From positions 1,302,001-1,366,000 of the forward strand of contig NC_090598.1 in the NCBI RefSeq assembly GCF_000497125.1: DNA of 64,000 nt, in the 5' to 3' direction. Source of the stretch: Spironucleus salmonicida (taxonomy: Eukaryota). A model generated the notes under the pieces. The model did not search any database and was not told where the DNA came from. It saw only the letters and a list, made by a program, of their open reading frames with translations. This document shows, piece by piece, positions 8,763 to 56,653 of the stretch (positions are counted from its first letter, which is position 1; each line of letters begins with the position of its first letter). Position numbers and translations under genes: made by a program.

Positions 8763-9234
8763 TTTAAAGATGCGCTTTTTTCTTTTATTTCATATTATAT
8801 ATCTAATAATACTATTGTGTAATAGCTCTAAAGAAATCTATACATTATGATTACTATAGGACCTCATAATAATGAATTTATAAAATACTTCACGTTTTTC
8901 TTTGATTATTAATCTTCTTATCAAGTAGATCTTCGAAATTACTATGAAATTTTAATTTGTTTTGAATTATCAATCACCTGCTTATAACTTTCTTGTTTTT
9001 CATTTTTGCTATTATGATAAAAATAATATAAATTCTTAATACTTTATAGTAGCATAAGTATAGAACCCATATTTATCAGAATTAAATCAAAATTAGAAAT
9101 TCTATTTGACATAATATTAAAAGTAGAATAATGATTATTTGTGTTTTGTACTAAAATATAGAATTAATATGTTCAAATCAAAGTAATTGGTTAATAAATA
9201 CCAACCTTATTCAATTCATCAAAATAATCATTAA

Positions 9235-10071
9235 ATGCCAAATCCATTTCTGTAAGCAGCTATTGATAATGACATATTTTTTATTAAATTCAACTTATCT
9301 ATGATAGATGAAACTTCGATACCAGCCCAAAAAACTGCGCTACACTACGCTGCCTAGTACGGCAATATCAACGTCGTGAAACTGCTGATTCCATTTCTGG
9401 CAGCTAAAACATCGTCAAACGGATTCACCGCGCTGCACTATGCCGCAAAACACGGGTTCTACGAGTGCGTGCACGTACTGGCCGAGCTAGAGGCCGGCAT
9501 CAAGACCGCGAATAAGAAGCTGGCGATAGAAATAGCGGCAGAGAACGGCGAGCTGGAGATAATGACGCTGCTATGGAAGTACGAAGGGGGTCCTAGTATC
9601 AGCGCTGGGGACTGCCAGGAGGGTCAGGAATAGCTTCAGCGGCTGGGCCGGAAGCGCCTCACTAACCAACTGAAGAAGAGCTGGCTGGTGCAGTTCTATT
9701 GCCAGGAGCAGGGAAAGCTCCAGTAGCAGTTGGTCAGGACGCAGATTGAGTACAAGACGCAGCTGGTGAAGGTCGAGCGCGAGCGGGACATCCTACTGGA
9801 GCGTATCACCTACCTCAACGCCGCCGTGAAGCAGGACGAGAGCGACTGCGAAGATTGGGTCAAACCAGTAGTGCAGGACGACGACGAACCCGGGAAAGGG
9901 CTCTGCCGGAACCTGAGCTTTTTGGAGATCTCGTGCAGCTAGGTTTTCAACGACCAGCGGAAGCGGAACCTCATAATTCAAGGGCACGGGCTCAAGAAAG
10001 AGATACGCCAGCTCAAGCAGATAAGCCAGAAGCTGCTCGACCGTTTTGAGCAGGTTTTCGAAAATATGTGA
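9235..10071 (+). CDS. Ankyrin-repeat protein with C-terminal coiled coil (Giardia protein 21.1-like), copy 1, 278 aa
   Basis: TALHYAAQYGN, GFTALHYAAKHG and LAIEIAAENG ankyrin repeats; ATG at 9235 is in frame with track ORFs 9376 and 9730; ends ATG TGA. Confidence 0.88.
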
Positions 10072-10073
10072 TT
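9319..10073 (+). repeat. Inverted repeat A, copy 1 (755 nt, GC-rich), partner 28917-29671
   Basis: Reverse-complement match; only one difference noticed (9747 T vs C, synonymous); the ORF track gives identical peptides for both copies. Confidence 0.95.
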
Positions 10074-11924: not shown

Positions 11925-13145
11925 TCATTTAGCTAATTTCTCACGGCAAACTGGGCAAGAGGCATTATATTCGACCCAACTTAAAATGCAATTTTAATGA
12001 AAAATATGAGCACATGGTGCTTACAAGAAACTGTTCTTATCATTATAATCAATGATTTCTAAACAAATTGGGCATTAAATACAATCACCTTAACGCTACA
12101 AATTTAAATTAATTTTATTAGATAGTCTAAATTTTGTTTTAAATCTTATTTTAGGTGTCAAAATTGCAATTAAATTAATCAGTGATACTATTTCTAGAAT
12201 ATTTTCATTTTATCTATCATATCTACTAATTTTTGATGATTAACAAAAAATAAAAAAAGCAAAAACCTGTTTTAACGCGTAGTCAGAAAGATAAAAAGCA
12301 AAAAACCGCGTTCTTAATAGTTTTATTTTTATTTTATCACTAATTAACAAGTATGATATTATTGGGTAACACATAATAATCTAATGAATAAGGAAAATTG
12401 TTTCGTCAGAAGATACCATAAAAATAACTAAAAATGGGTAAACTGGACTCAACAAAACCGACAATAAAGTAACACCTGCTAATATTTATTATACTCGCGT
12501 TTAATATTATAAAATTTAAGTTCTGAGGTAAATAGACATTAGAATTAATGGGGGGAAGAACAGACCTATTTAAAGAATAAATATCAAGGTAAACGGTTTG
12601 CTAAAAAAGGAAAAACTATCAATTATCTCTAATATAAATATTAATTAGATAAAACTTGATATCATTATGAAAACGAATTGTAAAATATTTAGCTAGACTT
12701 CTAATTAAGATTCGAAATAATAGGTAATAGATTTTAACCCTGTATAGCTAATAGATAGCATTGAAATTATTTATATGAATAATATAAATCTTTAAAGAAA
12801 TAAACTTTCATAATGATCATTCTTAACAATAAAATCTAAATTAAAATCAAAGTGCATATCATAAATTTTTAGAGTTTAAACTAAAATTTAACTATTTGTG
12901 AAATCAAATGTGTAATTTAAAATATCATATTCAAAACTATATTTTTATTTATTAAAATAGCAGTAATTATCAAAGCAATTAAATTTAAAACATTAATTTG
13001 TGTAAATAACAACATCTAGTATTCCAGAGTCTATAAGTTTAACGTTAATAAGGCACTTTTTCTAATTTTATTAATATTTTTAATAAGCAGTTTGGTTAAT
13101 TATAAGTTGCTAACTTTAATAGTTTAGTAGTAGGACAAGATTCAT
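11925..13145 (-). CDS. Multi-pass transmembrane RING-H2 E3 ubiquitin ligase (Tul1/Dsc1-like architecture), 406 aa
   Basis: Frame read end to end without TGA; several hydrophobic helices; C-terminal CPICLE...[26 protein letters not shown]. Confidence 0.85.
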
Positions 13146-13186
13146 TTATTTATGAGTGTAATATAAATATATATAAATCATATAGA

Positions 13187-13882
13187 TCACAGTCCTGAAC
13201 CAAATCCAGAATGCTTAGATTTCGATCTACTAGACATGGTAATCCCACCCTTAAAATTCATACTAGATGGAATATTGTAAGAACCAGGTCCGATTGCACC
13301 TTCCTTTTTCTTTTTCTCTAACCATAATTCTGGTATTCTTCCTTTCATAGTAACATTTCTTATAAATTTTGTGCTCTTAAAACTTTCCTATGCATTTATT
13401 GACTATGCAGGACCGGGACTTCTCGATTTTTCCTCTACACCATTTTAATTTTAAGAAAATCGATAACCAATTTTATTTTTAGGGGTAATTGGTACATATG
13501 TGTTAGGACTAGGTAAGTTTTTTGATCTTTTCTCAAGGAAAAATAAATCTGTATTATTGGTTCGTCCTGCTAATGCAGATTTTCTCGACTCAGCTTTACC
13601 AGTTTTGAAATCTGGATTATATTGATTTGGCGGAGGATTATTATCAGGAAACTCTACTTTTGTTCGAGATTTTAAAGAAAAAACTTCCCCACCCATTGTA
13701 GATGGGCGATCGTAATGTGCAGGTGATAATTCACATTTAATTTGGTCAGATTATATTGGATTTAATCGTCCTTTAAATGTAAATTATGGGGAGTAGCAAT
13801 CTTTTCTTTTAGGAGAATAAGCATCTGGAGATGGTACATCTGTTTTTATTGTAGCAGTAAAAGTATTAACATCCTTAGTCAT
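13187..13882 (-). CDS. SHIPPO/PG-rich repeat protein (ODF3/CIMAP1-like), 231 aa
   Basis: Periodic PSPDAY, LSPAHY, PPPNQY, PSPNTY, PGPAQS and IGPGSY repeats, each followed by F/T-x-x-x-G/S-R. Confidence 0.82.
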
Positions 13883-14527
13883 TTTATGATCAAATTATTA
13901 ATAACCCATATATATAATAAAATATACCTTTTTATTTGATAACTATAAATCATGTAATTGTACTTATATTAATATTATCTTGTTTTGTCTAACTAAGTAA
14001 AACTTAAAAATATTATAGCATTCTGTTCGATTCAACATTATGAAATAGTACATCATATATTAGCATATAACTGATAATATAGTATCTTCCACAAAATAAT
14101 TAGCTTTAAGCAATATTATGATAACTAATAGTTATTAAGCATAAGACTATGTATTACTATAATTATGTTCAGTGAATAAATAAGATAATATTCTGTTAAG
14201 AAAATGTATAGTTTAATAATCAAAAGCAACAACAATTAGTATATCCCAATAGATAGTAAGTATAATTAATAATTTGTATAATGAAAGTATTTAACACTCT
14301 GGTTGTAAGTATTTTTTAAAATTATTACTTATAACATGATTGACTTAAAGTTTTGTTTTGAAATTATTGTTAAAAAATAACCAAAATCTTGGATAGACAA
14401 AGAATAATAAATTTTATTAATTATTGTATATACTTTATAAGTTTTATATATAATAATAATATTTATTCTTTATGTAATCTATATACAAATGGTAATGAAA
14501 AGCTCAGTTATAAAGTATTTTTATAGT

Positions 14528-14762
14528 CTTCCACCCTGAACAGTGGTCCCCCGCGGTGGGGTTCGGGCCCATCATCATTGGCCTGCAGAGCCTGTTCCAG
14601 GAGTACAAGGAGCGTGCGGTGGGCATGATATCGAACCCGTCGCAGTCCGAGATCAAGAAGTGCGTCGAGACGAGCCAGTCCTTCAGCTGCCCCAAGTGCG
14701 CCATCAGCCACGTGGGAATGTTCAAGGCGCCTGTGGAGAGCATTGAGAACAAGAAAGACTGA
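14528..14762 (+). pseudogene. 5'-truncated copy of the Ubc6/UBE2J E2 gene (begins just after the catalytic Cys)
   Basis: Matches the 3' part of 33670-34185 (FHPEQWSPAVG...IENKKD). The upstream frame hits TGA with no ATG, and the TPSGRF...C motif is missing. Confidence 0.8.
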
Positions 14763-14810
14763 TTTGAGAAATTACATTACTATACTATATCGGGACGATA
14801 CCTTTTCGCA

Positions 14811-15749
14811 ATGCCCAGGAAGACAATTCTGATGGCCTCGTCCGCCCGGGCCACCATCAAGAGTGACGTGCTGCAGTAGCTGCAGACCTCCTCGGCTATG
14901 TCACCGCGGGCCATGGGCTCCCCGCAGCACAACCTGCCCCCGACGCCACCCGGATTTCTGGCGAAGCACCCCAGCTTCAACCTCCCGATCCCCGTGGTGT
15001 CCTTCTCCCCGAAGAAGATCCTATCCGCGAGGGAGCTCATGGCGCCCACGTCCGAGGAGGTGTCCGACCAGCAGGAGGCAGAGGCTAAGTCCAAGTTGTA
15101 TCAGCTGGAGCGGTCCAACGACCTGCGGCAGATGCAGATCGACAACCTCGCCATAAAGAACCAGCAGCTTACGCAGAGACTGCAGGCGCTGGAGCGGCAG
15201 AGTAGTGAGCGAGCACCGCAGGTGGACAAGGACGTGCGCCTGGACGAGATCCTCGAGCAGAACATCCGCATGGAGTCCGAGCTGGCGATACTGCGCGAGC
15301 AGGTGCAGCACCAGAAGCCCCAGATCATCGAACATGTGAAGTACATCACTGAGAACAGCAACTTCAAGGCGCTGTACGAGCACGCCACGTCGCAGCTCGC
15401 CCACAAGGACCAGCTCCTCACCGACTACAAGATCGAGATCTAGGCCCTCAAGGAGCTCTTCGGCATCTCGGGGCTATCGTCCTCCGCTAGCCCCAAGGAG
15501 CGCGCCATGGCCATGATGTCCTACAAGGGCATCAAATCCGACCTGGTCGACATCCTGCAGCGCGAGGTGGCCGACCTTAAGGCGCAGCTCAAGGAGGTCT
15601 CCTCCCAGTCCGGCTCGGGGCTGTACCAGGCGCGCATCGATCTGTTCGCGGCCAGGGAGGAGATCAAGCAGCTGTCCTCGGACTTCGACGCAGCGAACGG
15701 CGCCTTTGACGAGTACCTGAAGATGGACATGCGACCCTCACTCAAGTGA
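14811..15749 (+). CDS. Hypothetical coiled-coil protein, copy 1, 312 aa
   Basis: MPRKTILMASSARA...; track ORFs 14898 and 15507 joined through TAG=Gln; ends AAG TGA. Confidence 0.8.
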
Positions 15750-16193
15750 TGCGAGGTGCTGGACCTGGTGCGACAGCAGCGCGAGGGCCCTGTCCATGGC
15801 GGCCAGCTGGGCTGGGAAGGGTGCGTTGCGGCTCATGACCTGGGTGACTAGGGCGTGGTGCTCCGCCAGCAGGTTCATCTGGCCCGTGTACGACGGCTAC
15901 ATAGCCATTTCAGCGTTGAGGTGGTCCAGCTGCTGCTCCAGATCGCTGGGCTGGGGGCCGTGCAGCTCAAATCGCGGGACCTTAAACGGTGCCGGCGAGG
16001 CTGACAGCTGCCCCGCAAGCGCGTCCGCCCTCCTCCTGCAGGTTGCAATCTCCGCCTCGATGCGCTCGCTGAGCATCTCACGCTCGGTCACCGAGGCCAG
16101 CCCTGCGGTTCCAGTGAACTTGAACTCTTTCACTTTACTAAGCTACTTAATTATGTCTGCAAAAGCTACTGCATCATGAACTATACTGCTCAT
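15738..16193 (-). CDS. Hypothetical protein 'X', full-length copy, 151 aa
   Basis: MSSIVHDAVAFADIIKQLSKVKEFKFTGTAG...HLASLE; ends GAG TGA, overlapping the neighbouring gene's end by 12 nt. Confidence 0.7.
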
Positions 16194-16289
16194 TATTTTA
16201 TTAACTTTACATATTTTAATATAATATTTTACTGTATAACTTGAGGCTAATCCGTGGCTAATTATATATAAAGTAAATTTTATCTTAAA

Positions 16290-17210
16290 ATGGATGCACT
16301 GCTCACAAAATACTAAAAGGAGCTGGAGCCTCTATCACAGCAGAGATTCTAGGAATTGGCTACATCGGAATCATCAGTATTATTTAACCAAAATCAATGC
16401 AAAAATCGCTACTCGAATATTATTCCTTACTCCCATTCCTAGCCGCCAGGCGAGTATTTTCACGGAAATTTCGTCAGCATAGGCGGTATTTAATTTTTTA
16501 TCACCCAGGCACCAGTAGATGCGGGTGACTTTTATGCAAAAATGGCACAGGTCCAGAGCACCTCTGTCATCTAAGTCACGAAATTTGCGGAGGGTGGAAT
16601 TCTGAAGGCCGAGCGGTACGTCCCATTGGCGACAGACGAGGACGTTGCAATAACGTAGAACGCTATTTTAGCGGACAGACTCTCGCTGGCGATCAAAGCG
16701 CAGCAGCAAGGCTAGCCTATGAAAACTGTCGAGGACTGCCTTCGAGCGGCCCCATAGAGGTTTGCATGGTTCCAGGATTCCTTTACCACTCCTTCTGGTA
16801 CAGTATCAGTCAAAAAATACGAATAAATCAACTCATTTTACAGATACTAGCTGGGTCTGGGGAACCAGACTTTGGATTACTACTACTTCCCGAACTGGTC
16901 GGACCAGTCGGCTCCTGACAACATGAAGGAGATATCATCCCTTTGTCACCACCTGCACGGTCAGACAAACCTAACGGTTCACTGCTCTGCAGGAATCGGC
17001 AGGTCTACTACTTTCTGTATTTGTTTTTATATTTTTGAGCAATTTATCAATAAAACTACAAACAAATCTACAGATTCTTGGAACAAACTACCAATAAATA
17101 TATTTGATATAATAGAAAATTTCAGAAAAAACCGTCACCCGTTTTGCGTTTAAACGATCGAGCAGTTCAAGTTTATTCTCGAATTTTGCGAATTTTGCGA
17201 CTAGAAGTGA
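16290..17210 (+). CDS. Classical protein tyrosine phosphatase, 306 aa
   Basis: KNRYSNIIPY, FITQAP, WSD loop, VHCSAGIGRS, Q-loop VQTIEQF (first Q is TAA); ends AAG TGA. Confidence 0.92.
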
Positions 17211-17219
17211 CGAATTTTC

Positions 17220-20200
17220 TCACAATCTGCCAGTGAACTTCAGGGCCAGCATCACAGCAGTTGCCACGACGATCGTGATAAGCAAAACCGAGCCGAGGCT
17301 AATTCCGAAGATCTCGGCTGGTGTGAATTAGCTTTCTGCAGGCTGGTGCAACGTTATCAACGTGCCCTGCAACTGCGTCTGACATGTGCAGACAATTTGA
17401 GTCGGGAGGTTTTTCTGTGTGCAGGAATTTGCCGCTGGTACTTAACCTAAAAGTGTAAACGAGAACGAATTTTGCGAGTTAACCGCTCCACAGGAGCCAG
17501 TTGTCTGCTAAAATATGACCTCTGTGGTTGAAACAGCTTGTACGAAGACGTAATTTTATGAGGAAATTAGGAATTTCAGCGACTGGCCATCTACCGAAAT
17601 TGGGAACTTTTGAGAAGCTGTGGATCGTGACGACGAGAAAATCGTTACAGAAACTGTACCAAAAGAGTAGCTTAATTGAACATTTGTGAAGAAAAAGTTC
17701 GAAATTTAAATGGACTGATTTGGAGAAATAAAAGAATTCTGGAAGTTAAAGCCGTTTTAGTTTATGGGAATGGCGTTATAAATAGCCTATATTTCTGTAT
17801 CAGAGAAGCTTTATGCGTTGTTTTTATGGGCAAAAATAGCTTGAGTTAGGATTTGTGGTATTATTCTGTAAAATTACATCCAACTTTCAATAATATTATT
17901 GTTCAATTCTTTTTTTAAATTATCAATAGATGTATTTATCCTATAAGTGATAGCTAACTAGCTAGACACATTGGTGATCGGTATATCTAAATAATTTGAG
18001 TAGCATCTAACTGTACAGTTGATAAAAGTATTAAAGATTAAATTAACAATAGGTTGGTTCCCTTATATGAAAGCTTATCGCGACAATTTTTATATTACGA
18101 TTCGTTTTTGTTAACTAGGTAAAGCTAAAAATTATGTCTATGTGGTTGGCAATACTAACTCTACTATATTAATAGCTGATGTTTTCGTATCACATTCACC
18201 AGATATTAAACAATACGTTATCATTACCGGAGAATTTAAAATAGGTTAAAATGCATAAGCCGGCTACGAATTCACAGAAATAAGATTTGCTGGTATTTAA
18301 ACATTATTAACATCTAAACATTAAATGGAATATGTTGATTATGCTATTAATTATACTAAATTATGTATATCATATTCGGAATTAGCAAAATTGCAACTTG
18401 CCGCAATAAATAAATTTTTTATTGGTAAAACCATAACTCTATATTAATCTTGGCTACCTAAATAGAAAATATTAATTAAACATTAAGATGGATCAGGATT
18501 TGGACCCATATTTATATTTGTAAATTTAATTGTAGTTGATGTGAATTCATAACAGTTATCAACAGATGCTTATAATAGTGCTCCTGATGGTATAATATTG
18601 TAATTAATATTCAAGCCACTGGGAACTTAATTATTAAGCCTATCTGTACTAACCCAGGTTGTTAGTATAATATCAAGAATAATATTTAAAGTGAATGAAA
18701 TCTATGATAATATTTAAGTAATAACTGTTGTGCAAACTGTTTAATAAGAAACACTAATATCATATATTCCTACTTTCCCATTCTATAAATCACATGTATA
18801 TTAAGCAAAAGTAGGAGATGCTGATCCCACTATTTAGCAAAGTAATTTTCCGTGAACTGCATTAATCAATTAAACTGTTTGTATCTATATATTGGTATAA
18901 GTAAATAAGAGATTAATGATTTACGTTGTTGGAAGTGGAATACCAGCTGCACTAATAGCAGGTATCGCGGTAAATGATAATGTATGAGGAGAAAACTAAG
19001 TTTCTATACTTTACTAATAATTTAAGCAAGAATCCCAAGTCAAATTAATTTTTTCTCCTTCTATTGTAGGTCCAATTAAACTCTAACAAATCTATGGAAC
19101 ATTAACAAATTAAAATGGAAATGAATCCACTGTAATACCGCATGTGATAACTATTCCAGGCTATAACTAAAAAATACTATTAGTCTTATCAATGAATACT
19201 ATAAGTTTCTATAGATTAGTGCACTAATATGTAAAATCAGTTAGGGTATAGTTTTATACTTTAATTTTATAGAATCCACCTGGTTTATTATTAAATGTTA
19301 AAATATTAGCCGCAAATATATATCCATCTATTGAAAATCCAACTTCTGGAACTACTAAATCTAATATATTTCCCGCGGTCGTTAGACAATTTTGTAATTC
19401 TAGATCATTAACTTATGCTATATGCCTATTATTGGCTTAATCAAATGTAATAGGTAACTAGACTGCGATTGAAAATGCTAAATTTTAAAAAAATATATTG
19501 TTCACACCTTAGTTAAAGCAAACATCATTATATACTACTTTCAATCTTAAAAATGAATTTGCTGGTAATACAGGAATTGAAACATTAAAGAATGCAAATT
19601 AACCACCTGTGTGCATGCTAGAAGGAATCGCCTAACCAATTGTGGTAAAACTAGTCTAACCTAATTATAAAGATTATAACTCAATATTTGCAGATTATAA
19701 CCCATCAAAAATAACTCTAGTACCAGATAACTTAATTGTATTGACACAATCTGTGCATGAAAGCAATATATCAGAACTATAAATAATATCTCCGATTGTA
19801 AAGTTAATAATTTAATTTGCATAATTAGTGCCTAATATATCATTTCCACTGGTGAGCAAAGCCTAATTATAATTTGGTTGGCCCTAAATCATTTAATTCA
19901 CAAAAGGAATACCAAATAACATAAATTCTATATTTTAAAGAACTTAATTGCACACATAATTTTAAGGTATATTTTATATCCTAGATGTAACAAATGGTAT
20001 AGCTGTTTCTAATAATTATTAAGGTAATACATCTGCTGTAAATCCTGACATAACTGTGAAAAATTCTTTATAGTTTATAGGAATATTTGATATCATAAGA
20101 CCATTCTTACCTTTGGGATAATAACGAAGTGTTGTGTTGATTATTTCGCAATTATCTACTAGTTAAAAGTCTGTACACTTTATTTTCGGATCTGCAAATG

Positions 20201-20279
20201 TAAATGACACAATTGGCGAGGGACCTTAGGACTGATCAATTATTGCAGTTGCAGCTACTGAAATTACTAAAGCCAACAT
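17220..20279 (-). CDS. Large type I membrane/surface protein, 1019 aa
   Basis: N-terminal signal MLALVISVAATA; beta-rich, Cys-containing ectodomain; C-terminal TM IFGISLGSVLLITIVVATAVMLAL with short tail KFTGRL. Frame spot-checked. Confidence 0.8.
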
Positions 20280-20410
20280 TTTATTCTAAAATTAAAAATA
20301 ATAATATAATATATTATTTAAAAATATACCTGAACCCAATATTAATAATATATCTAAGGTATAAATAACCAATCATCGACTCTCTCTACAATTTATACTA
20401 ACTCAATTAA

Positions 20411-20917
20411 ATGCCACATTTTTATCGCTATCTTTCCCCCTAAGAAATAGAATTTTTCCATATCAGAAAGTCAGCTCATTTTGTGACAACTAGAAAGATG
20501 ATATTCCGTGTGAAAAACCATAAAGTTACAATCCCGGCTGGTTTTATAGCGGATGGAGTTTTTGTAGAAAATTAAGACTTTCTGTCATCTCCTGCATGGT
20601 TCTGCTTTGAATTTTTGTATGCTAGTCATAAATATGATGATAAAATAGCAGATAGAGGAGAAATCGATCAATTCATGTTCAATAATTATAGTGATATTAT
20701 CACAGTTGTAAATGATGAATTAGTTATAGATGGGGTCCGGATTAGTGGAAGCGATATATTTTAAGAGAGTATAGAAAGAGGAGTTTGCGTTTGTTAAGAT
20801 ATTATAAGGGAAATAAAAATAAATGACTAGAAAATAGATTGGATGAGGATTTGTTGTGCAGGAGTATGTTTAAGTGGAATTGGAGTTGGATATGGAATCA
20901 GTTTAATAATTAAGTGA
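20411..20917 (+). CDS. DUF1353-like protein with C-terminal membrane anchor, 168 aa
   Basis: VTIPAGFIADG...SPAWFCFEFLYASH...DRGEIDQFM resembles the DUF1353 'VP.GF.TDG...A...HD.LY...R.eaD' pattern; hydrophobic C-tail; ends AAG TGA. Confidence 0.65.
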
Positions 20918-20924
20918 AAAAAAT

Positions 20925-21530
20925 TCAATTCTATAATTCGTGTAAATAGTTTTTTACAAAAAGAGGATTTTGCTTTGGAACGTCCAACTAAAGCTTAAAT
21001 AACAAATTTGATAGATTTTCATGAACTCCTAATAGCTGTTAATAATAGTCATAATAATTTTTATAATTTAAAATTATTTCTGATTGAAGTGAATTTTCTA
21101 TTATTTATGCTCTTATTACAGATTATCTATCAGAATTATTTTTAGTTAATGCTATTCCACCTTTTTCAATAAGTATTTACAATTCTAAAAGTGGTACTAT
21201 AGCAGCAGCTATGCGTCTTCTAGAAGCTCCAGCAATTAATGTTAAATTATCTCTAGACTTTGGAAGCACTGGTATAGACTAAAACAAAATAGCATGTATC
21301 GAAGTCTTAGCTCTTTGAGACAAATTGTTAATATCTAAGTTTTATATCAACTATTGATTAGTTTATGCATGTAGTATAATCTGTGGAAAAAATGACTATA
21401 ATTATACTGCATTTTAATGCAACGTTTATGTGGATATATTATTAGGTTATATATCGTCTAAAGAATTTTATTTAAAGGTTATTGGATCAAAATATATGTT
21501 TGGAAACTAACTAAGGTGGCATAACGACAT
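20925..21530 (-). CDS. Hypothetical protein, 201 aa, possible winged-helix (E2F/DP-like) segment
   Basis: Open frame MSLCHLSQFP...; SRDNLTLIAGASRRRIAAAIVPLLELQILIEK. Confidence 0.55.
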
Positions 21531-21610
21531 TTATTATCATCGTAACCTTAGTATAAAAATAAGTCAAATAATTTATAAGTCTATTATATGTTTATTTATA
21601 TATTATTAAA

Positions 21611-23715
21611 ATGGAATAATTGATTGATGTTGAAAGATATTTTCATCACTAAATTGATTAGAATTTTTACTCATATTCGTTTAATAAAGCATATTAGTAT
21701 GATTAATTAGGAAATTTGTTATAGGAAAACGATGTAATATTCCCTTTTTACCCTAATAGTCCAGTATATAGTTATACCACCTAGTTATTTGCAGGTATTT
21801 ACTATGCTTTGGTTTAAAATCAGTTATTTTCTTTGAATAAATTAAATGTTATTCGCATATTTGACTTTAAAATACTTTAGTAAATAGAAAGTTCTCCATT
21901 TAATGTTGCCGTGGCAAATGATAATATTTTCTTTGCAGTGGGTCATAATTTATATTGTAATATAGACAATAATTATAGTTTAATGAAAGTTTACGAAAAT
22001 AATATTTAAATTTTTGCTGATGCAAATGACGTAATAGTATTTGATGATTCAAAAGCGTATTCTTATAGAACCGATCTTATGTTTTGCATCGATTTAATAT
22101 AACCAATTTATAGTAGACCAGGATTTATATTAGGACTTTATAAATAGCATCATGTTTTTATTAAACTTCAAGACGGATTTGATGTAATTACACTTACTGA
22201 TAATATATAAATAAAATTCATTATAAATGAGTATAAAATTACAAATTTACAATCATAGTTTTTATTAAAAAAAAGAGAAGTCATTGATTTGAGTGCATCT
22301 ATGTTTGATATTGCATAAACATCATTTAATTAGCTTTTGTTTTATAGATAAGTTGATCTAAATATATTAGAGGTTTTAAACAAATAAGACTAGCTTTACT
22401 CATTTTTATATTTCTTAGATTAATTTTAAGATAAAAAATAATATGAATATCTTTGTGATCGCCTAATGACAAAGGGATTGTCGGTTAACATAAATTTAGA
22501 GAAAAGTTCTCCTCTATTTTTAACCTACTAAGTTTTACATTGTTAAGACAATTAGTTGGAAATATTAAAAAATGATATGAATTTTATTACAAAATTTGAA
22601 GATGGGTTATGTTAGGTAAATTTTAACATAATAAAGAAACTTTTAATCTAAGTGATAAAACTTTAAAATTAGGTATTAACTAGCTAGATTGTGCATAGAT
22701 TTGCACACAATAATGAATTAGAAGAATTAGAAGTACTAATTTTTTAAGTGCAGGATTTAATTTTATTTAAATGTTATTTTGATCCAATTATTTTACGTTA
22801 ATGTAATGACACATATTCATCCAAACTTATTGTTCAACTGTTTTAACATTCATTTGAATCTGCAGTGGAGTCTGTCGCAAATATAACTATATGGGCTGAG
22901 AATTCACCATTAATATTAGCAGCCTAGTCAGGTAACTAGTACTATGTTTAAAAATTTATCAATATCGATAAGAGAAATGGGCATATAGCACTAAAAGTAG
23001 CTAAATCAATTAAAATAATTGATATGCTTATACCTAATTTTTCAAAACTAGTAAATTATTAACCTTAATCAACTAAATTAATGGAATTAGTATAATCAAA
23101 TACTCTTAACTAACTTTTATATAAAGATGTATTAATATAGAATTAAGCAGGAATATAAGATTAATCTGGAAATTATGCATCTAATATAGTTATAAATAAT
23201 TAATACAAAATATTAGAGTATAAGAATTTACTTACTATTGAGCTGAAACTCTTTCATTCATAATAAATAATGAATATGAAAATTTCACCATTTTATTCAA
23301 TATAACTTATTAAACTTAAGTTTTAATCCACACCAGCATCATTACAATTATATATTTTAAAGCAATTAGATGATCCTTAAAATGCAATGGATTTTTTTAA
23401 TTTATAAACGGATGTGTTTGGAATGTCTTTAAATTTACATACATTAGATTCTAAAACTGCTGATATATTTTGTAGAGATAATGCAAGATACCATACTCTG
23501 GTTACTTTATATACTAGATAATATTTTAAAACTTCAGCTGCTAAGTTTCATGGCAGCTTTAATTTTAATTAATAGATTATAGAGAATGTGTTGGTTCAAG
23601 ATTTATTTTAGGTGCTTGAGCATCAAAGGAATCTATAGCCATAAGATAATATTCCAGACTAGTAGATTGTGAATATAGTGTTTAATAATTTCCATGTAGA
23701 TGAGAGTTCTAATAG

Positions 23716-23752
<37 letters not shown>

Positions 23753-23848
23753 AATGATATTTATTATGAAGAGCAAAATTTTGATACCGATGTAGAAGAT
23801 TTCGGTAGTTATGATGAAGGATCTTATTAAAATGATAAGTATTACTGA
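21611..23848 (+). CDS. Ankyrin-repeat-containing protein with acidic C-terminus, 745 aa
   Basis: SPLILAAQSGN...GHIALKVAK and AGIQDQSGNYAS degenerate ankyrin repeats; poly-Asp tail; frame spot-checked. Confidence 0.7.
23720..23752 (+). repeat. (GAT)11 coding microsatellite (poly-Asp)
   Basis: Eleven tandem GAT in frame in the 21611-23848 CDS. Confidence 0.9.
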
Positions 23849-23855
23849 AATTTAA

Positions 23856-25961
23856 TCACTATCTGCCTCCATATCCAACTAAATAGTCCCCTGCACCTAG
23901 ATCTTTAAGCCATTAAGAATCTAACATGTCTTTGCATCTTTTTCGCATATTTGGATTTAGGTGAAGAAATGGCTTTATAAATTTTTCTATATCTTCTGCT
24001 TCCCCTTAATCAAATCCATAGTCAACCACTAAAATAGTTGAAATTGCACGGAATTCCAAATTTTTAGTGAATTTAAATTATTTTTATTGAGTTTCTAAGG
24101 ATATTTCTATTAAATTTTCATTCTAGCAATTTTCTAAGAGCCAATCCAAGCCTTGGTCACCTGAAATTTAAACTATCTATTTGAGGTGATGAGATGGATC
24201 TTGCTTCCCATCTTATCTTGGCCTAAATAACACATTTCCTGTAATCAGTTCAAATACAATACACCCAACAGAAAAATCATCTACTTCTGGTCCATATGCT
24301 TCATGACCAATAATAATTTCTGGCGCTCTGTAATTTGGAGTTTGTATTGTCTTAGAAAATCTATAATCTGTGTAACATGCATTTCCTAAGTCAATAATTT
24401 TTATTTTAAACATTTCTAAGCAAAACGGAATAAGTTGTTATTTTGAATAGTATGATATCATGGTAGGATATATTTACTGTCCACTTGTGGTTAATCCATA
24501 ACATTTTATTTCATCAGGGGTTATATTTTTAGGTAAGTCTAATTCTTTTTACTTTAAAAGTGGATTAATGGGTTAATTGCTAATTTATTTTTCTTTTTAT
24601 GCAACACTCTAATATAATTATAGTCTTGAATGGAATCCAGATCTTGCAATTTTAACTAAAGTTTTGGTTGAGTAAGAATCATATATAATCCGTTCTACAC
24701 ATGATTAATGTAAAATCTGTTGAAGGTTATTATCAATAATATTTGATAGTTAGTAAGTTATTCCATTGCTAGAAATAAGCTGCTTTAAATTCTATTTAAG
24801 ATATTTCGATTCAACTAATTTGAGTTGTTAATAAAGATTAAAATTTTCAACAGTCTCTCCTTTCACAATAGAATCAAATACTTGCTTAGTAGAAAATAAA
24901 TTAACACAATTTTATTCAATTTTTATTTCTTGATCATAATCTTATTAAAAGTTTTTTGGAAGAATTTAAGCTCTAAATATCTCTTCAGACGTCTTTATTA
25001 AGTTAGGCAAATTGAAAATATTCATACCATCAATACAATAACACTGTTATTCAGTAGATACTTCGGCTTGGCCATATTTTTAAATAAATTTAACGAATTT
25101 TTTCTTAAAATTTGTATTATCCATTATTGTGTTTCTTATAACTTCCCATTAGTAAATCCCCTAACGCTAAGCCCTTAAATGTAAATAATTACAAATCTAT
25201 GACTGATTTTACTTATCCAAAAGATCAAAATCGTTGATATTTATCGTCGTTGCAGGTGTGCTTAATTTTGCATCAAAAATATGCTGACTCTAAGCTCCAT
25301 ATAGAATATTTTCTAACTTATAGTCAGTATCATTCAAAAGTGGCAAATAATAAACCATTGCTAGATTTTCTGGTTTAAGGTCAGTATGAATAATATTTGC
25401 AATGTTATGCAAATAATGAACCGATTTTAGTAAATTATAAGAGATTGCCTTAACTATTGGAAGCGGAATAGATTTATTATAGTTAACTTTTGGAGAATAT
25501 CTTGTCATAAGGCGATACACACTATGCCCTAATAGCTCGAAAACCATGCAATAATAAAATTTTTCTGTCTCTTCACAGTCATCATCAAAAACGTCAGCTA
25601 TCTCTTTTTTAGAGTATACAAAATTGTCTAAAAGTTATACGATGCCACCATTATCTTCGAGTTTTACTTGTTAACATTTATCTTATATTTATTTTAATAT
25701 ATCTACTTCATCTTTTGATATTTACTAATCCAGTTCAGATATATTTATTTTTAATGCCACATATCTATTAAAAGTAATATCTTTTGATAAATATACCGTC
25801 GAAAACCGACCATTAGCAATTTTGCGTAAAGGTATATAAGTAGATTTATCACTTTTAAACTCAGTTTCAAATAATTACAACCAACAATATCCATTATCAT
25901 CGTATCTGTCGGTACTTTCATCAATTTAATGATGAACAGATAAATTTTGATATGACGGCAT
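23856..25961 (-). CDS. SRPK-family (CMGC) protein kinase with long spacer insert, 701 aa
   Basis: GRFSTVYL, CMVFELLG and IIHTDLKPEN, then several hundred aa of spacer, then KIIDLGNAC and IQTPNYRAPE: the bipartite SRPK layout; ends TAG TGA. Confidence 0.9.
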
Positions 25962-26018
25962 TTTAATTGAAGTAGTATTAATACTATATATTGATATAAA
26001 ACGAATTATTAATATAAA

Positions 26019-27185
26019 TCAATCTACTTTTGTAATTAAATGTCTCTTGTAGTTTTCTTACATAACTTCTTGTTTTTTCTTATTAAAATAAATTTTTATC
26101 TTTAAGTCATAGTAATCGTTTAGTGGTTAAATTAAAATATACAATAAATTCGCTAATATACCACTATTAAAAACTAACCCCGTTAATAATATATTCTCTA
26201 CTACTTGATTATAAGGTCCTATTTCGGCATTTTGTTATAAATCTGTATAAAATTAATATATCATTTATTAGCTCATATAACAATAAGATGATTTCCATGC
26301 AAAACAATACTTTATTATATAATTTGTAGAGATTCTTTCCCAAAGCACAGCTTTACCACCAATAATAGTATAAATGATTAATGATTAAACGACCGCAAAC
26401 ACTAATGTCGTTATATGCATATAAGATTTCCATAAATAGTATGAGCAGCATAATAAAATTGTTAATGTAATACAGACGAATAGAATAAGATCTCCTTTGT
26501 ATGTTAATTTATCTAGGTAGAAAAATATTTTATTAGGTGGAAACTTTACTCTATTTAACTGATTTTTTGTCTTAATTTCAGAAATATCTACACAGTAATA
26601 CCGATAGCCTATCATAACTCCAAAAAGATATACATATAAATAATTTTATAAGGCAATACCTTAAGTATTTGGAGAAAAAGTACTAAAAACAAACATGAGA
26701 ATTGTGAATATAAATATATATTACAATTTTTTCTATTTTTTGTAAATACATGAATAAAATAGTACTAAACTAAAATACGCTTAAATTTCTACGCAACTGA
26801 CTGTTATAAGAAATTTATTAAAAGGAATTTCAATATAATTACTAAGTAGTAGAGACTAGAATATACATTACTTCATAGTTAAACTATTAAAAACATAATT
26901 ACCTAAAGATATAAATAACGATATAAAGAAGTATTCTTTAATTTTTTATGCTAATAAGTAAAATATATCCACTTTTAAAGATAATCTTTCAATAATACAT
27001 TAATAATCAAGAAAACCTTATACAATCAACTAGATAACAATAAAAATATTTTCACCAACTAAAAAAATAGACTATTCTTCTGTAATGGCCTAAGTAATAA
27101 CAACATTTTTCATATATTTATATGAGCAGGAAAATAAACCAAAAATAAGGAAGCCAGATTAATAAAATAAATATGAATCTGACAT
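26019..27185 (-). CDS. Multi-pass transmembrane protein, 388 aa
   Basis: ATG at 27185 is in frame with track ORF 26385-26615; many hydrophobic segments; TGA at 26019. Confidence 0.7.
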
Positions 27186-27233
27186 TTTATATATTAAAAT
27201 TATTAGTATTATATACTTAAAATAAAATAATTT

Positions 27234-28802
27234 TCACATCATAAACATATTCTCTTCATATTTATCTGTATAGCCATGATATTTACCATCATCTTTGTAA
27301 GAATCATGGCCTTGATATTCAGACTACATTTCAGATTTCCAATTATTTCTATCTTCTCCTAATTAAAAATGGCTTCTTCTAAGTTAATTAACCATGTCTT
27401 AGTTGACACGCTCACTAGATCCTATTGCATCTGGTTTAAAAGCGGCTTAGTTTTCAGTCTCATAACTATTCCTCTCATCACTTTTTAACATAACATCACT
27501 TCTCCAAAGTTGATTGTTTATAGGTTGTGCTAGTTTCTTGCCTGCAAATTATACTGAATCTTATAGCATTGCTTAAGTCTATGATATGTAATTATTAGTT
27601 AAACTCGGATCCATAAGCTATACAGACGATCTACCATGAGCTAAAGCTTCTAAATGGAATTTTGCTCTTTCTTCTTAAGCTTCTTTAATCATTTAGGAAT
27701 TAGGTTTGTACTACATCATAGTTTCAGATTAACCATCTCCACGCTCAGATGACATTTTTTAGGAATTAGGATCAGTTGGCTTAGCCATAAATTTTCTAAT
27801 GTTTTCTGCCTCTTTTTAATTAAATTTTACTTATGCTGCATCAACAAGTCCCCTATAATTATCACGCATTTCTGATATTCTCTCTTTTTATTTTTCAGGA
27901 TAGCAAACATGTTCTTAAGTATTTTCATACGCAGGTTTGACTGAATCTGATGCCTTAATTCCATCTCTACCAGGAAATGCAGCGCTCATCTCTGTCACAC
28001 CATAAAACTATCCATCTTCAGCTACTGGTAAATGAGATGCCCTGAGATATCTTTCTCTAGCTTTTTATGCATCAATATCAATTAAGTCCCGAGGTTTTCC
28101 TGCAACTTCGTTAAGAGCAGTTTGCGTTGAAGAAATTCCCATTTTAGATAAACCATCTTCTAGTTCAATATGAGACTTTTAAAATCTTCTTAAATCATAA
28201 GTCTCCTTTTCTACATTTGGTTAACCTTAATAATTTGCAGAGCACTCAGTTTAATATGTATTTTTAGTACCCTCATCAATAGGGATAGAACTTGTTCTTA
28301 AATTCATTGATTTTTACTCTGGTTTTTCATAATCCCTCTTAAAATATGCAGCCGAATTTTCAGTAATATAAGAATTAGGATCATTTCCTAACCCAAAATG
28401 AGAACCTTAAAGATTTTTAGTGAGAGGTTATCTAGCATAAGTACCATCTAACCTACGATAATCAGCCATATTTTATGTTTCCATGACAGGTGCATCGTAA
28501 CCTAATTTATTAGAAATATTATCTCTAAGACCATGAAGATTTACAGCCGCAGAATAAGTCTCACCTCTTTTAGGTTAATATTCTTCTTAAGTTTCGGAAA
28601 TTCCAGTTGGCATATTTGATCCTTACACCAAAGAAAAATGTGACTTTCTTAAATCTGCCTTCTTATCCTCTGACATATTTGCTTTAGCTTCTTTAAGATC
28701 ATATTAGATAAATGTATCATTGTAAGTAGAGCTACCAAACTTAGCGTTATCGGCGACTTTAATATGAGAACGTTGCAACTTAGCAGTATTAATATTTGAC
28801 AT
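27234..28802 (-). CDS. Repeat protein resembling SAXO5/TEX45-type microtubule-stabilising proteins, 522 aa
   Basis: Recurrent L-x-x-S-H-F-x-L-G-x-D units (LQRSHIKVAD, LRKSHFSLVQG, LQGSHFGLGND, FQKSHIELED, LRASHLPVAED, LRRSHFQLGED), each followed by S/T-x-x-x-x-x-Y/F. Confidence 0.7.
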
Positions 28803-28916
28803 TATTTAAGGTGAATTGCGGACAAACAATTATTCCTATATTTATATATAATAATAATATTAGTACAAAATAGAATGTTCTTAAATCATATATATTTTGT
28901 AATAAATAGGAATATG

Positions 28917-29671
28917 AATCACATATTTTCGAAAACCTGCTCAAAACGGTCGAGCAGCTTCTGGCTTATCTGCTTGAGCTGGCGTATCTCTTTCTTGAGC
29001 CCGTGCCCTTGAATTATGAGGTTCCGCTTCCGCTGGTCGTTGAAAACCTAGCTGCACGAGATCTCCAAAAAGCTCAGGTTCCGGCAGAGCCCTTTCCCGG
29101 GTTCGTCGTCGTCCTGCACTACTGGTTTGACCCAATCTTCGCAGTCGCTCTCGTCCTGCTTCACGGCGGCGTTGAGGTAGGTGATACGCTCCAGTAGGAT
29201 GTCCCGCTCGCGCTCGACCTTCACCAGCTGCGTCTTGTACTCGATCTGCGTCCTGACCAACTGCTACTGGAGCTTTCCCTGCTCCTGGCAATAGAACTGC
29301 ACCAGCCAGCTCTTCTTCAGTTGGTTAGTGAGGCGCTTCCGGCCCAGCCGCTGAAGCTATTCCTGACCCTCCTGGCAGTCCCCAGCGCTGATACTAGGAC
29401 CCCCTTCGTACTTCCATAGCAGCGTCATTATCTCCAGCTCGCCGTTCTCTGCCGCTATTTCTATCGCCAGCTTCTTATTCGCGGTCTTGATGCCGGCCTC
29501 TAGCTCGGCCAGTACGTGCACGCACTCGTAGAACCCGTGTTTTGCGGCATAGTGCAGCGCGGTGAATCCGTTTGACGATGTTTTAGCTGCCAGAAATGGA
29601 ATCAGCAGTTTCACGACGTTGATATTGCCGTACTAGGCAGCGTAGTGTAGCGCAGTTTTTTGGGCTGGTAT
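28917..29671 (-). repeat. Inverted repeat A, copy 2 (755 nt)
   Basis: Reverse complement of 9319-10073. Confidence 0.95.
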
Positions 29672-29755
29672 TGACGTAATATCTACCATTTTAAGATTAT
29701 CTTTTATAAAAAAGATGTCATTATCAATAGCTGCTTATAAAAATTGATTTGGCAT
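28919..29755 (-). CDS. Ankyrin-repeat protein, copy 2, 278 aa
   Basis: MPNQFLQAAIDNDIFFIKDNLKMVDITS, then identical to copy 1; same 837-nt length. Confidence 0.88.
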
Positions 29756-30622
29756 TTCGTAGAGAAATGTATTTTAAATATTATATAAAATTATTAATAC
29801 TAGGATTTCATTTATGTAATATTTAGCTTTATTGCGATAAATTTATAATTGCTTATATTATTATTAATTTTAATTATAGGACTTAAAGTATTCTTATATA
29901 TTTTGAGATACATTTTATAATAATTCTTTCAGATAATTTAAAAAATTTAATTCATGAATATTTCACAAAATTATCTCATATATTAACTTTTTCTCTAGTA
30001 CGCAAAAACTATATTTAGTATAGTTAAGATTAATGTTCATTCTAAAGCGTATAAAGATAACGCTAGAAATTTAGTGTAACATTGAAAATTGTTAATATTT
30101 TGCGCTAATATTTAGTTGAATAAAACTTATTTTTAATAAGATAAAAATTTACCAGAATTTGAAATATGTATTTTCAATATTAACAATATAATATTTTTAC
30201 ATTAATTACTATTATAGAATGTATGATAGTACAATTTAATATTATGTTGCTATCTACTTTAAAATATTATTGATAATTTTATCAATGTAATATTAATCTG
30301 TTTCACCTTTTATATGAATTATGCATTATCATAAAAATTTCAATTAAAATTAGTAGATAAGTTCATTAAGTAATTAAAATTATTTTCACAACTCTTAATA
30401 ATGTTGGATACCAAAAGGGTTTATACATTCCAATTAAAATTAATAATTCAAATTTTAAAACGATACAAATTATATAATCACCATATTTTATATTCATTCA
30501 TAGTGAATAATTTAACTGCGTAATTAATATTAATTTGCTTAAAATAAGATATAGATTATTTGATAAATATGAGTATTAACGACAAATTATTGTTATATTC
30601 TAAATAGAAATAAATTCATCTA

Positions 30623-32182
30623 TCACCATTACTCCATTTATTTTTCTAGTTCTCTAAGTTTTCTTCGTTTTTCTTCAACAGCATTTTCGATGTTTTATTT
30701 TTCACTTCCCAGTCCATTAACAATTCGTCTAGCCCCCTCTAACTCAGTTTCTTTAACGCGAACACGCGCTTGTACTCTTTGAAAATCTCGTTCTAGAGCT
30801 AAAATTCGTCGCTCTCTCTAATCTAATGTTTCGGATAATGCTGATACTTTGGCTGCATTTAATTCTGCCTTTTATGTTTAGTCTCTTAAATCCCGTTCCA
30901 ATGTTACTCTTTAATTGTTTAAGGCATTTTCAAACTCGTTTAACTTAACATTTTTCTCTGTTATTTAATCACTTAAATCTTATAATTATTCATTTTAACC
31001 TTAAAGCTATGTTTTCTATAATTCCATCTCGCTTTTTAAACGTGCTTATTCTTTAACAAGCGTATTATTTTGTACTTACATTTAATTCTATACAGACGAC
31101 TTTTAATCTTCATTTTGTGATATCTAGTCCATCCGTTTCCTTAAAATATTTAACTCCTATACGTTTTCCTTCTCAGTTTTGACGGTTTTTGAGTCTTTGT
31201 AGAGAGGCCTAATTGGAGCACTATTCTGACGCTGTCTGACACCACTAAGAACTTTCAATTCCTTCATAAAATTTTTTGATTTCTGTGCCTGCTGAGCTGC
31301 AGCTGCGAAGTCCAAAATTGACATCTTGTTCAGCTTGTTTTTGATATTTATTTTTTCTGCCTCAGCGGAAACATCAGGATTCCTAACCTTCTACTTGAGC
31401 AAATTTACGAAAATTCCGCAACGTGCAATCGCCAAAAGCTTCTTTCTAATGACGTCTTTTTTGTCCATTTTCATGTTCCTGAGCGCCAGATTCTGCTCCA
31501 AACAGCGCTCCAGATAACAACAGGTATCGGCCTGTTTCTGCTTTAAAAGCTGATGCTTAGTACTCATTTCCAGAAGCTCCTGACTGGCCAATTTGCAGGC
31601 CTGTAGAATGTCCTTAACGCCATTTCCGGCCTCGAACGCCTTCTTGGCAATGCGTTCGTTGTCGGAAATCAAGTTTTTGCACTTCGCGGCGAGCGAAATG
31701 ATGTCCTTCTCCTTATCGCTGATGCATCCCTCCTGAAGCGCGAGCTTTTGCGACAGAAGCCTGTTCCGCTCGGCCAGGATCTTGATCTCCTACACAGTGT
31801 CACTTTGGCGGTTCTGGTTAACATAGTTCGATTGCAGCGCACTGGTGAGCTGGTGTTTGTAGTTCGTGATCTGGTGCGACTGGGATTGGTTCTCCTACTG
31901 GAGGTAGTTGAGGATGTTCTGGAGCTTGTTAACCTGCTGGTTTACGAAAAGCTGCGACTGCAAAATTTGATTTTTCTGCGTAATTTCGTTGCCTAAGGCT
32001 TGCTCAAGTGCTGTAATTCTCGACTGGCCCTGTAGAGCCTAGAATTTGGCCATTTAAAGTTCCACTGTTTAGTTTTTGACGTTGTTAGCTAAATCCTGCA
32101 GTTGTTACTGTTTTTTATTCATAAGTAACATTGATTCCTTATCTAACAGCTCAGCTTTTAATTCCAAATTTTCCACGTCCAT
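30623..32182 (-). CDS. Coiled-coil protein, 519 aa
   Basis: MDVENLELKAELLDKES...; in frame with track ORF 31391-31672; Q/E/K/L-rich heptads; ends TGG TGA. Confidence 0.78.
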
Positions 32183-32310
32183 TAAAATTTAGAATTTTAT
32201 ATAATAGTATTTAGTATATAATAAATATTCCTTCAGAAATCAATAAGATCTTGGGTTATGATACCTCTTTTTGAGGGAAGCTTCTAAAAATTATTGAGTT
32301 CAAATAGTTT

Positions 32311-32694
32311 AAGTTCACTGGAACCGCAGGGCTGGCCTCGGTGACCGAGCGTGAGATGCTCAGCGAGCGCATCGAGGCGGAGATTGCAACCTGCAGGAGG
32401 AGGGCGGACGCGCTTGCGGGGCAGCTGTCAGCCTCGCCGGCACCGTTTAAGGTCCCGCGATTTGAGCTGCACGGCCCCCAGCCCAGCGATCTGGAGCAGC
32501 AGCTGGACCACCTCAACGCTGAAATGGCGATGTAGCCGTCGTACACGGGCCAGATGAACCTGCTGGCGGAGCACCACGCCCTAGTCACCCAGGTCATGAG
32601 CCGCAACGCACCCTTCCCAGCCCAGCTGGCCGCCATGGACAGGGCCCTCGCGCTGCTGTCGCACCAGGTCCAGCACCTCGCATCACTTGAGTGA
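32311..32694 (+). pseudogene. 5'-truncated or decayed copy of gene X (15738-16193)
   Basis: Near-identical to X from KFTGTAG onward. The upstream frame has TGA at 32272-32274 and no ATG until 32356. Confidence 0.72.
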
Positions 32695-33621
32695 GGGTCG
32701 CATGTCCATCTTCAGGTACTCGTCAAAGGCGCCGTTCGCTGCGTCGAGGTCCGAGGACAGCTGCTTGATCTCCTCCCTGGCCGCGAACAGATCGATGCGC
32801 GCCTGGTACAGCCCCGAGCCGGACTGGGAGGAGACCTCCTTGAGCTGCGCCTTAAGGTCGGCCACCTCGCGCTGCAGGATGTCGACCAGGTCGGATTTGA
32901 TGCCCTTGTAGGTCATCATGGCCATGGCGCGCTCCTTGGGGCTCGCGGAGGACGATAGCCCCGATATGCCGAAGAGCTCCTTGAGGGCCTAGATCTCGAT
33001 CTTGTAGTCGGTGAGGAGCTGGTCCTTGTGGGCGAGCTGCGACGTGGCGTGCTCGTACAGCGCCTTGAAGTTGCTGTTCTCGGTGATGTACTTCACATGT
33101 TCGATGATCTGGGGCTTCTGGTGCTGCACCTGCTCGCGCAGTATCGCCAGCTCGGACTCCATGCGGATGTTCTGCTCGACGATCTCGTCCAGGCGCACGT
33201 CCTTGTCCACCTGCGGTGCTCGCTCACTACTCTGCCGCTCCAGCGCCTGCAGTCTCTGCGTAAGCTGCTGGTTCTTTATGGCGAGGTTGTCGATCTGCAT
33301 CTGCCGCAGGTCGTTGGACCGCTCCAGCTGATACAACTTGGACTTAGCCTCTGCCTCCTGCTGGTCGGACACCTCCTCGGACGTGGGCGCCATGAGCTCC
33401 CTCGCGGATAGGATCTTCTTCGGGGAGAAGGACACCACGGGGATCGGGAGGTTGAAGCTGGGGTGCTTCGCCAGAAATCCGGGTGGCGTCGGGGGCAGGT
33501 TGTGCTGCGGGGAGCCCATGGCCCGCGGTGACATAGCCGAGGAGGTCTGCAGCTACTGCAGCACGTCACTCTTGATGGTGGCCCGGGCGGACGAGGCCAT
33601 CAGAATTGTCTTCCTGGGCAT
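32683..33621 (-). CDS. Hypothetical coiled-coil protein, copy 2, 312 aa
   Basis: Differs from 14811-15749 at 3 residues seen (L/V, S/T, F/L). Confidence 0.8.
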
Positions 33622-33669
33622 TGCGAAAAGGTATCGTCCCGATATAGTATAGTAATGTAATTTCTCAAA

Positions 33670-34185
33670 TCAGTCTTTCTTGTTCTCAATGCTCTCCACA
33701 GGCGCCTTGAACATTCCCACGTGGCTGATGGCGCACTTGGGGCAGCTGAAGGACTGGCTCGTCTCGACGCACTTCTTGATCTCGGACTGCGACGGGTTCG
33801 ATATCATGCCCACCGCACGCTCCTTGTACTCCTGGAACAGGCTCTGCAGGCCAATGATGATGGGCCCGAACCCCACCGCGGGGGACCACTGTTCAGGGTG
33901 GAAGGCTGTAAAAGAAAAACAAATATTCGTATTTGTTTCAAACCGTCCCGAAGGGGTAATCATGCGTACATGAGGTGCTCTGAACGGATATTCTTTTGGT
34001 AATAATAACTAACCATGATATGCACCACCTTAATATTCAGTATTTAGAGGACCTCTAACCGAAAAATGAATATCTAACATATTATCTTTATCAGGTATCC
34101 AAATCTTATAATTAGGATCATTTGCTTATTATACTGCCTTAAGTTAACGCATTATAATTTTAGGGTTTTCAGGTAAGTCAGGCAT
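33670..34185 (-). CDS. UBC6: Ubiquitin-conjugating enzyme E2, Ubc6/UBE2J family, 171 aa
   Basis: HFSVRGPLNTEYQGGAYHG, YPFRAP and TPSGRFETNTNICFSFTAFHPEQWSP, the UBE2J-type signature. Confidence 0.88.
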
Positions 34186-56598: not shown

Positions 56599-56653
56599 TT
56601 GTAGAAGTGAAAATAGTTACTATATTATATTAAAAGTAAGGTAATATTGTAAA

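Follow-up and report, generated by a model that had tools for sequence, protein, structure and literature searches.

In a 64-kb window of the Spironucleus salmonicida genome (G000:C3:1302001-1366000; 29.7% GC), a 1.6-kb sequence, here called repeat B, is present as two inverted copies at the ends of a 16-kb segment and cuts through a gene at each edge. We read repeat B, with a probability of roughly 60%, as an old inverted duplicate of the breakpoint type, whose copies mark the ends of a past inversion and have been kept identical by GC-biased gene conversion. The evidence centers on a conserved gene for a ubiquitin-conjugating enzyme (E2), in which the GC content of third codon positions (GC3) steps from 0.20 to 0.88 at the repeat edge, a change that points to repair between the copies. 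The window was read with genetic code 6, which gives dense genes; the standard code gives just 8 open reading frames (ORFs) of at least 100 amino acids. Positions are those of the window unless a G000:C3 coordinate is given.

Repeat B and the genes at its edges

Self-BLAST returned repeat B as a single, ungapped inverted match of 1612 bp, at 99.3% identity, between 14519-16130 (copy 1, plus strand) and 33913-32302 (copy 2, 32302-33913, inverted on the minus strand). Within the core (14528-16121 in copy 1 and 32311-33904 in copy 2), only 7 of 1594 positions differ (99.6% identity), and the longest identical stretch, at the E2 end, runs for 724 bp. A third copy was found by neither DNA nor protein search of the genome among the best-scoring candidates, and a DNA search of the genome showed the interior between the copies (16131-32301, about 16.2 kb) to be single-copy except for one copy of an ankyrin-repeat gene. 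Inverted copies of an otherwise unique sequence sit at both ends of this interior segment.

The whole E2 gene (33670-34185, minus strand, 171 amino acids, PF00179) crosses the outer edge of copy 2, and its invariant Cys89 is encoded at 33919-33921, beyond the repeat. Copy 1 holds a 5'-truncated, UBC6/J1-like fragment (14528-14762, plus strand) corresponding to residues 95-171, with neither a start codon nor the catalytic Cys89, and a TGA ends its frame 10 codons outside the core. The E2 protein is 65-71% identical to its closest relatives, one of them named Hexamita inflata, and the closest named relatives belong to Hexamita and Trepomonas. The UBC6 label given to this gene in a preliminary description of the window is compatible with these matches, because one member of the nearest E2 cluster is named E2 J1.

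Next to the E2 end, each copy carries an orphan gene of 312 amino acids (14811-15749, plus strand, GC3 0.90, in copy 1; 32683-33621, minus strand, in copy 2) whose two products differ at 3 amino acids. Its label, coiled coil (CC), rests on reading the sequence; Pfam gave no match, and no homolog was found in protein searches. At the inner edge of copy 1 lies the whole of gene X, a 151-amino-acid orphan (15738-16193, minus strand) with its first 24 codons outside the core. Copy 2 has a 5'-truncated X (32311-32694, plus strand), in which a TGA outside the core closes the frame 12 codons upstream and an internal ATG stands at 32356 in a GC-rich context. As protein searches found no homolog of X either, its strand and start rest on a codon score and on signal context. 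The score, computed from the first two codon positions, was +42.6 for the minus frame of X and −34.1 for the ORF on the opposite strand, and it classified 6 of 6 training genes correctly when each was left out in turn. The minus frame also begins in an A-rich context and ends in AGTGA, the stop reported for this species. Public records hold the opposite-strand ORF of 127 amino acids (15796-16179, plus strand) and a 112-amino-acid X, not the 151-amino-acid form, and gene X thus appears, from these sequence signals, to be annotated there on the wrong strand or too short. CC and X are convergent and overlap by 12 bp (15738-15749), and both end in the AGTGA stop/polyadenylation motif.

The preliminary description had proposed two inverted copies of about 1.6 kb at about 99.5% identity, flanking genes that are each intact at one end, and a block of about 10 genes between them. 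Each of these statements agrees with our results, since E2 is whole just at copy 2, X is whole just at copy 1, and about 10 ORFs in the interior, counting X, were accepted as genes. It had also noted decayed similarity past both borders and had taken this as a hint that the original duplication was larger. The similarity is real but short: diverged fringes extend for 19 bp on the X side, matched by 7 of 400 GC-matched controls, and for 8 bp on the E2 side, where 9 of 400 such controls scored equally high. A larger duplication is supported over these 8-19 bp, and beyond them no longer homology was found against controls (X-side shuffle p = 0.35). A candidate for longer homology on the E2 side, with a shuffle p of 0.03, was rejected because 27 of 252 real GC-matched windows scored equally high.

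Sequencing runs, used as assembled contigs, provided a view of the two copies. Four of the eight runs were mapped onto 12301-32300, which holds one copy each of repeat B and of a second repeat, A, described below. X1, X3 and X4 come from one sample, possibly the source of the assembly, and X5, which we guess to be RNA, comes from a separate study. Depth over B was about doubled in X1 (22 vs. 11), with a smaller rise in X3 and X4, and the runs contain every one of the 7 alternative bases of the core. At three linked differences (15467-15519), the allele depths were 10.0 vs. 9.6 in X1, 113 vs. 109 in X3, and 6 vs. 11 in X4. Repeat B is entered by contigs of the DNA runs from three flanks, the left one and the two inner ones. 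X5 contains the E2-5' junction and both alleles, whose depths (82 vs. 228) were not taken as a ranking of expression; it has no contig at the X junction of copy 2, a coverage gap that is not evidence. An assembly artefact, in which one copy would be a false duplicate or the interior would be wrongly oriented, finds some room in the dependence of the DNA runs on the assembly and in the contigs, which are unable to phase across 724 identical bases and in which all four junctions would look alike whichever way the interior lay. Given the raised depth, the presence of both alleles, the entry of contigs from three unique flanks and the junction and alleles in a run from another study, we consider such an artefact scarcely credible.

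Base composition and probable exchange between the copies

The copies of repeat B have 61% GC, as compared with 23-24% in the outer flanks, and the change falls inside genes. In the whole E2 gene, 19 of 94 codons outside the repeat end in G or C (0.20), as compared with 68 of 77 codons inside it (0.88; Fisher p = 5e-20). This was also true for gene X, where GC3 is 0.33 outside the core (8 of 24 codons) and 0.83 inside (105 of 127; p = 3e-6). The step is located within one or two codons of the repeat edge. Single-copy genes distant from repeats have a GC3 of 0.18-0.25, and highly expressed genes of S. salmonicida, in the part of the 2007 genome survey available to us, reach a GC3s (GC at synonymous third positions) of only about 0.4 (PMC1805757), so that expression does not explain a GC3 near 0.9. 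Neither selection on expression nor gene transfer would be expected to produce a step within a gene at the repeat edge. The E2 protein is not chimeric, because it aligns to diplomonad relatives on either side of the step.

As far as base composition can tell, the step fits long GC-biased conversion between the copies of B. Most silent sites in the repeat must have changed since the duplication, and we therefore infer that the pair is old and that its identity has been maintained. Seven differences in 1594 bp, despite the shift in GC3, are not what freely diverging duplicates would show. If the copies are homogenised by GC-biased conversion, an identity of 99.6% is no sign of recent or active rearrangement, and the near-identity of such repeats dates nothing.

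Origin of the layout and orientation of the interior

Inverting 16122-32310 in silico rebuilt a single locus, in the order phosphatase - X - CC - E2, with X (151 amino acids) and E2 (171 amino acids) both free of stops, and left X-3', CC and E2-3' as the second copy; this bears out the rebuilt locus predicted in the preliminary description. Whichever way the interior lies, the region contains one complete E2, one complete X and both CC genes, and every one of them keeps its own upstream DNA. Orientation thus alters no gene product or promoter, and at most 7 differing bases would be reshuffled.

A second inverted pair, repeat A, lies across the first. Its copies carry an ankyrin-repeat gene (9235-10071 in copy 1) and occupy 9233-10073 (plus strand), outside the B interval, and 28917-29757 (minus strand, inverted), inside it. 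Pair A repeats the pattern of B, with 752 of 753 bp identical in its GC-rich core and 64 of 84 bp identical, without gaps, over the first 28 codons at the diverged, AT-rich 5' end. The two pairs are interleaved (A1<B1<A2<B2), with 4.4 kb of single-copy genes between A1 and B1, and flipping either pair turns the other into a direct repeat. In the flipped form of the B interior, copy A2 would stand as a direct repeat of A1 at a distance of about 9.4 kb, an arrangement that would be open to deletion, and the assembled form should therefore be favoured.

The history that we propose begins with a staggered or template-switch break, in which the inversion and the duplicate would have arisen together. 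Alternatively, duplication of the patch may have come first, and the interior may have been inverted afterwards when the two copies crossed over. One staggered break at the X-CC-E2 end would give exactly the observed order, as would copying followed by crossover, and sequence alone cannot separate the two. Both routes had been named in the preliminary description; the reciprocal layout and the rebuilt locus support that part of it, and the historical inversion itself is likely. Later crossovers in an old, converting pair could have reset the orientation, so that the origin need not be reflected in today's arrangement. Since the duplication, as the GC3 steps strongly indicate, each copy would have been corrected against the other through non-allelic gene conversion, strongly biased toward G and C. 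Such conversion would keep even dead fragments identical, would have recast the functional E2 gene over its 3' half, and would fade at the edges of the repeat, leaving the diverged fringes of 8-19 bp. Occasional crossovers may also flip the interior over evolutionary time, not as a switch; rare flips of little consequence are plausible.

Several observations weigh against this history. The DNA runs come from a single sample, which may itself have been the source of the assembly. No outgroup gene order was found: among 67 E2 loci from metagenomes, whose best segments were 28-55% identical, none carried a match to any of 7 neighbour proteins, and CC and X, having no homologs, offered no linked outgroup loci. 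The lost 63-bp 5' end of X could be traceless after such time, and the HMMER match to X at copy 2 continues through the TGA as far back as residue 11, which hints at decay in place. Finally, of the 67 GC-rich patches located in the surrounding 484 kb, 40 lack a partner within that region, and for the patches at 43622-44523 and 55724-56692 no partner was found in the genome. Because many GC-rich patches lack a partner, duplication is not the sole visible correlate of high GC.

The HMMER match and the diverged fringes at both edges would suit a history with no inversion, in which an inverted copy of a block containing complete X or complete E2 was placed 16 kb away, the redundant 5' end decayed at one site, and conversion followed. 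The lost pieces could have been accommodated (copy 2 offers about 120 bp for the 5' end of X, and copy 1 about 635 bp for that of E2), and the pair is old enough for their traces to vanish. This history needs two events, however, as compared with one for a staggered break, no homology extends past 19 bp, and the same layout at a second locus, the 154-bp pair described below, suits a recurring mechanism. We regard reciprocal loss of this kind as unlikely, but as an explanation that deserves to be kept in view. Youth rather than conversion would account for the identity if a GC-rich, recombination-prone patch had existed beforehand and had been inverted and duplicated recently. Single-copy GC-rich patches are indeed common, and both inner flanks of B are raised in GC; but the break would have had to hit, in both E2 and X, the codon at which GC3 falls from 0.9 to 0.2-0.35, and it is the fringes, not the core, that have diverged, so that we give this idea very little credence.

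A different question is whether the interior flips often enough for both isoforms to occur in cultures or in the two nuclei. Flip-flop isomers and invertible switches are known in which a segment lies between inverted repeats, as in the plastid single-copy region and in bacterial phase variation. With 1.6 kb at 99.6% identity and a perfect stretch of 724 bp, repeat B is a good substrate, and homogenisation means that the copies do meet. An older CC protein record (P0031) and one X4 contig also combine copy-1 and copy-2 alleles. Mixed alleles are expected from collapsed assembly, however, and these records were rejected as recombinants because X3 and X4, runs of one sample, mix the alleles at 15684 and 15903 in opposite ways. 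Unlike the known switches, repeat B gave no evidence of two isoforms among contigs blind to orientation, it has no recombinase found nearby (a Pfam scan of 22 proteins between 5763 and 36827, and of these only, gave no recombinase domain), and neither a gene nor a promoter is altered by a flip; in addition, a flip would make pair A direct. By a rough estimate from mutation-conversion balance, a divergence of 0.44% implies conversion at a few-hundred-fold the mutation rate, which is rare per division. The step taken in the preliminary description, from high identity to a block that could still flip, is thus unsupported, as homogenisation of an old pair explains the identity better; frequent flipping seems improbable to us, and repeat B looks like ordinary genome evolution, not a switch.

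Duplicated pairs elsewhere and comparison with known systems

The 484 kb around the window contain 8 inverted matches (at least 200 bp and at least 97% identical), 3 dispersed direct matches and one tandem array. Because 8 inverted pairs occur in this region, the interleaving of A and B could be a chance overlap. Duplicated bases in the 484 kb have 49.6% GC, as compared with 27.7% for the remainder; for the whole genome, the available text of PMC9509377 gives 19.2% duplicated sequence and a GC content of 44.7 vs. 30.7%. Another locus with the layout of B is a 154-bp inverted pair at 97% identity (G000:C3:523791-523944 and 536719-536872, 12.8 kb apart), which consists of two converging gene ends, with each ORF, as judged by eye, whole at one copy only. 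In an automatic and noisy calling of edge genes at 7 pairs, B came out as reciprocal and A as a whole-gene pair, and 4 were left unclassified. A 4.2-kb inverted pair at 74361/90205 (G000:C3:1376361-1380593 and 1392205-1396437; 99.9% identity, 35% GC) has flanking ORFs that are whole at both ends in one copy, and by its sequence it looks like a young copy-paste duplicate.

Both inner flanks of B are single-copy and raised in GC. On the copy-1 side this holds for 16290-17700, which spans a tyrosine phosphatase gene (16290-17210, plus strand, PF00102) and the 3' end of a 1019-amino-acid ORF, with a GC3 of about 0.5. On the copy-2 side it holds for 31283-32182 (minus strand), the 5' part of a 519-amino-acid gene (30623-32182), with a GC3 of 0.61 as compared with 0.26 in the 3' part. 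The inner 1-kb flanks have a GC content of 0.40 and 0.42, and 0.40 is reached by 5.5% of 1483 non-duplicated windows. Neither DNA nor protein search found a hidden partner of these flanks, and the phosphatase paralogs are only 27-28% identical. Among 7 simple pairs, 6 of 28 flanks reach a GC content of 0.37 vs. 9% of the background (p = 0.04, for a threshold picked post hoc).

The GC-raised inner flanks may be former arm sequence and, together with the interleaving of pair A, they weakly favour a larger event with two ends, although both could be chance, because such pairs and patches are common. On a broader and rather doubtful view, the GC map of this genome would be a fossil record of inversions, in which breakpoint copies drive each other toward G and C (the third-position GC odds in the repeat are about 36 times background) and leave a fading single-copy patch once a copy is lost. 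Pairs A and B and the inner flanks would then be one inversion duplicated at both ends, with its orientation locked by the interleaving, since a flip at one pair would expose the other to deletion.

The closest parallel for the layout is the staggered-break model of Drosophila, in which inversions arise with inverted duplications at the breakpoints (Ranz et al., 2007; PMC1885836). In the part of that work available here, the duplicates, like those of B, are inverted, non-repetitive, partly genic copies at both ends of a segment, and are partial, non-functional gene copies no longer than about 1.9 kb. If the two breaks are both staggered, the model gives two duplicated sequences at both ends, an arrangement that pairs A and B might represent. 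The fly duplicates, however, have decayed (about 88% identity), whereas B has stayed at 99.6% identity and has turned GC-rich, and the fly inversions were polarised by outgroups. Primate palindromes, with GC-biased conversion from arm to arm, resemble B in the other respect: as far as the consulted text of PMC8981503 goes, their inverted arms are more than 99% identical and higher in GC than the flanks, with a spacer of intermediate GC, which is explained there by the spacer once having been arm. Repeat B differs in its arms of 1.6 kb, its spacer of 16 kb, its edges that cut working genes and a GC bias that is inferred, and its contrast in GC (61% vs. 23-24%) is larger than that of the palindromes (46% vs. 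41%).

GC-rich and duplicated regions published for S. salmonicida show the same pattern as B, that is, GC-richer duplicates (PMC1805757, PMC2874811, PMC9509377). In the portions of these papers available to us, GC-rich patches are unexplained in the earlier two and weaker in S. barkhanus (PMC1805757, PMC2874811), gene conversion is mentioned only for surface-protein families (PMC9509377), and the main texts of all three do not describe inverted pairs, steps within genes or breakpoint duplications. A search of the open literature listed no Spironucleus paper that deals with inverted repeats or with GC-biased conversion. As a single locus, repeat B would be ordinary, a breakpoint-type duplicate under concerted evolution and one of many in its genome. 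Its value is that of a clean test case, as the cause of the GC-rich patches was left open in 2007 (PMC1805757, as far as its available text goes), and it points to homologous exchange, among copies that are not allelic, in a protist with two nuclei.

Other features of the region were observed alongside these pairs. A pair of CHY zinc-finger genes (6238-6830 and G000:C3:1290901-1291493) is direct, GC-rich and 81% identical overall, and may be a pair whose converted tract shrank or stopped. A 2350-bp inverted pair (G000:C3:539162-541511 and 544214-546563) is 100% identical, with 40% GC and a 2.7-kb spacer, and a 36-kb tandem array (G000:C3:1468600-1504700) has a unit of about 1586 bp and about 49% GC. 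A histone-fold gene at 8237-8578 (plus strand, PF00125) reads as a divergent H3-like protein, which we assume could be a centromeric H3 variant. Finally, 47876-47957 and 50679-50760 form a weak, AT-rich inverted match of 82 bp at 76% identity.

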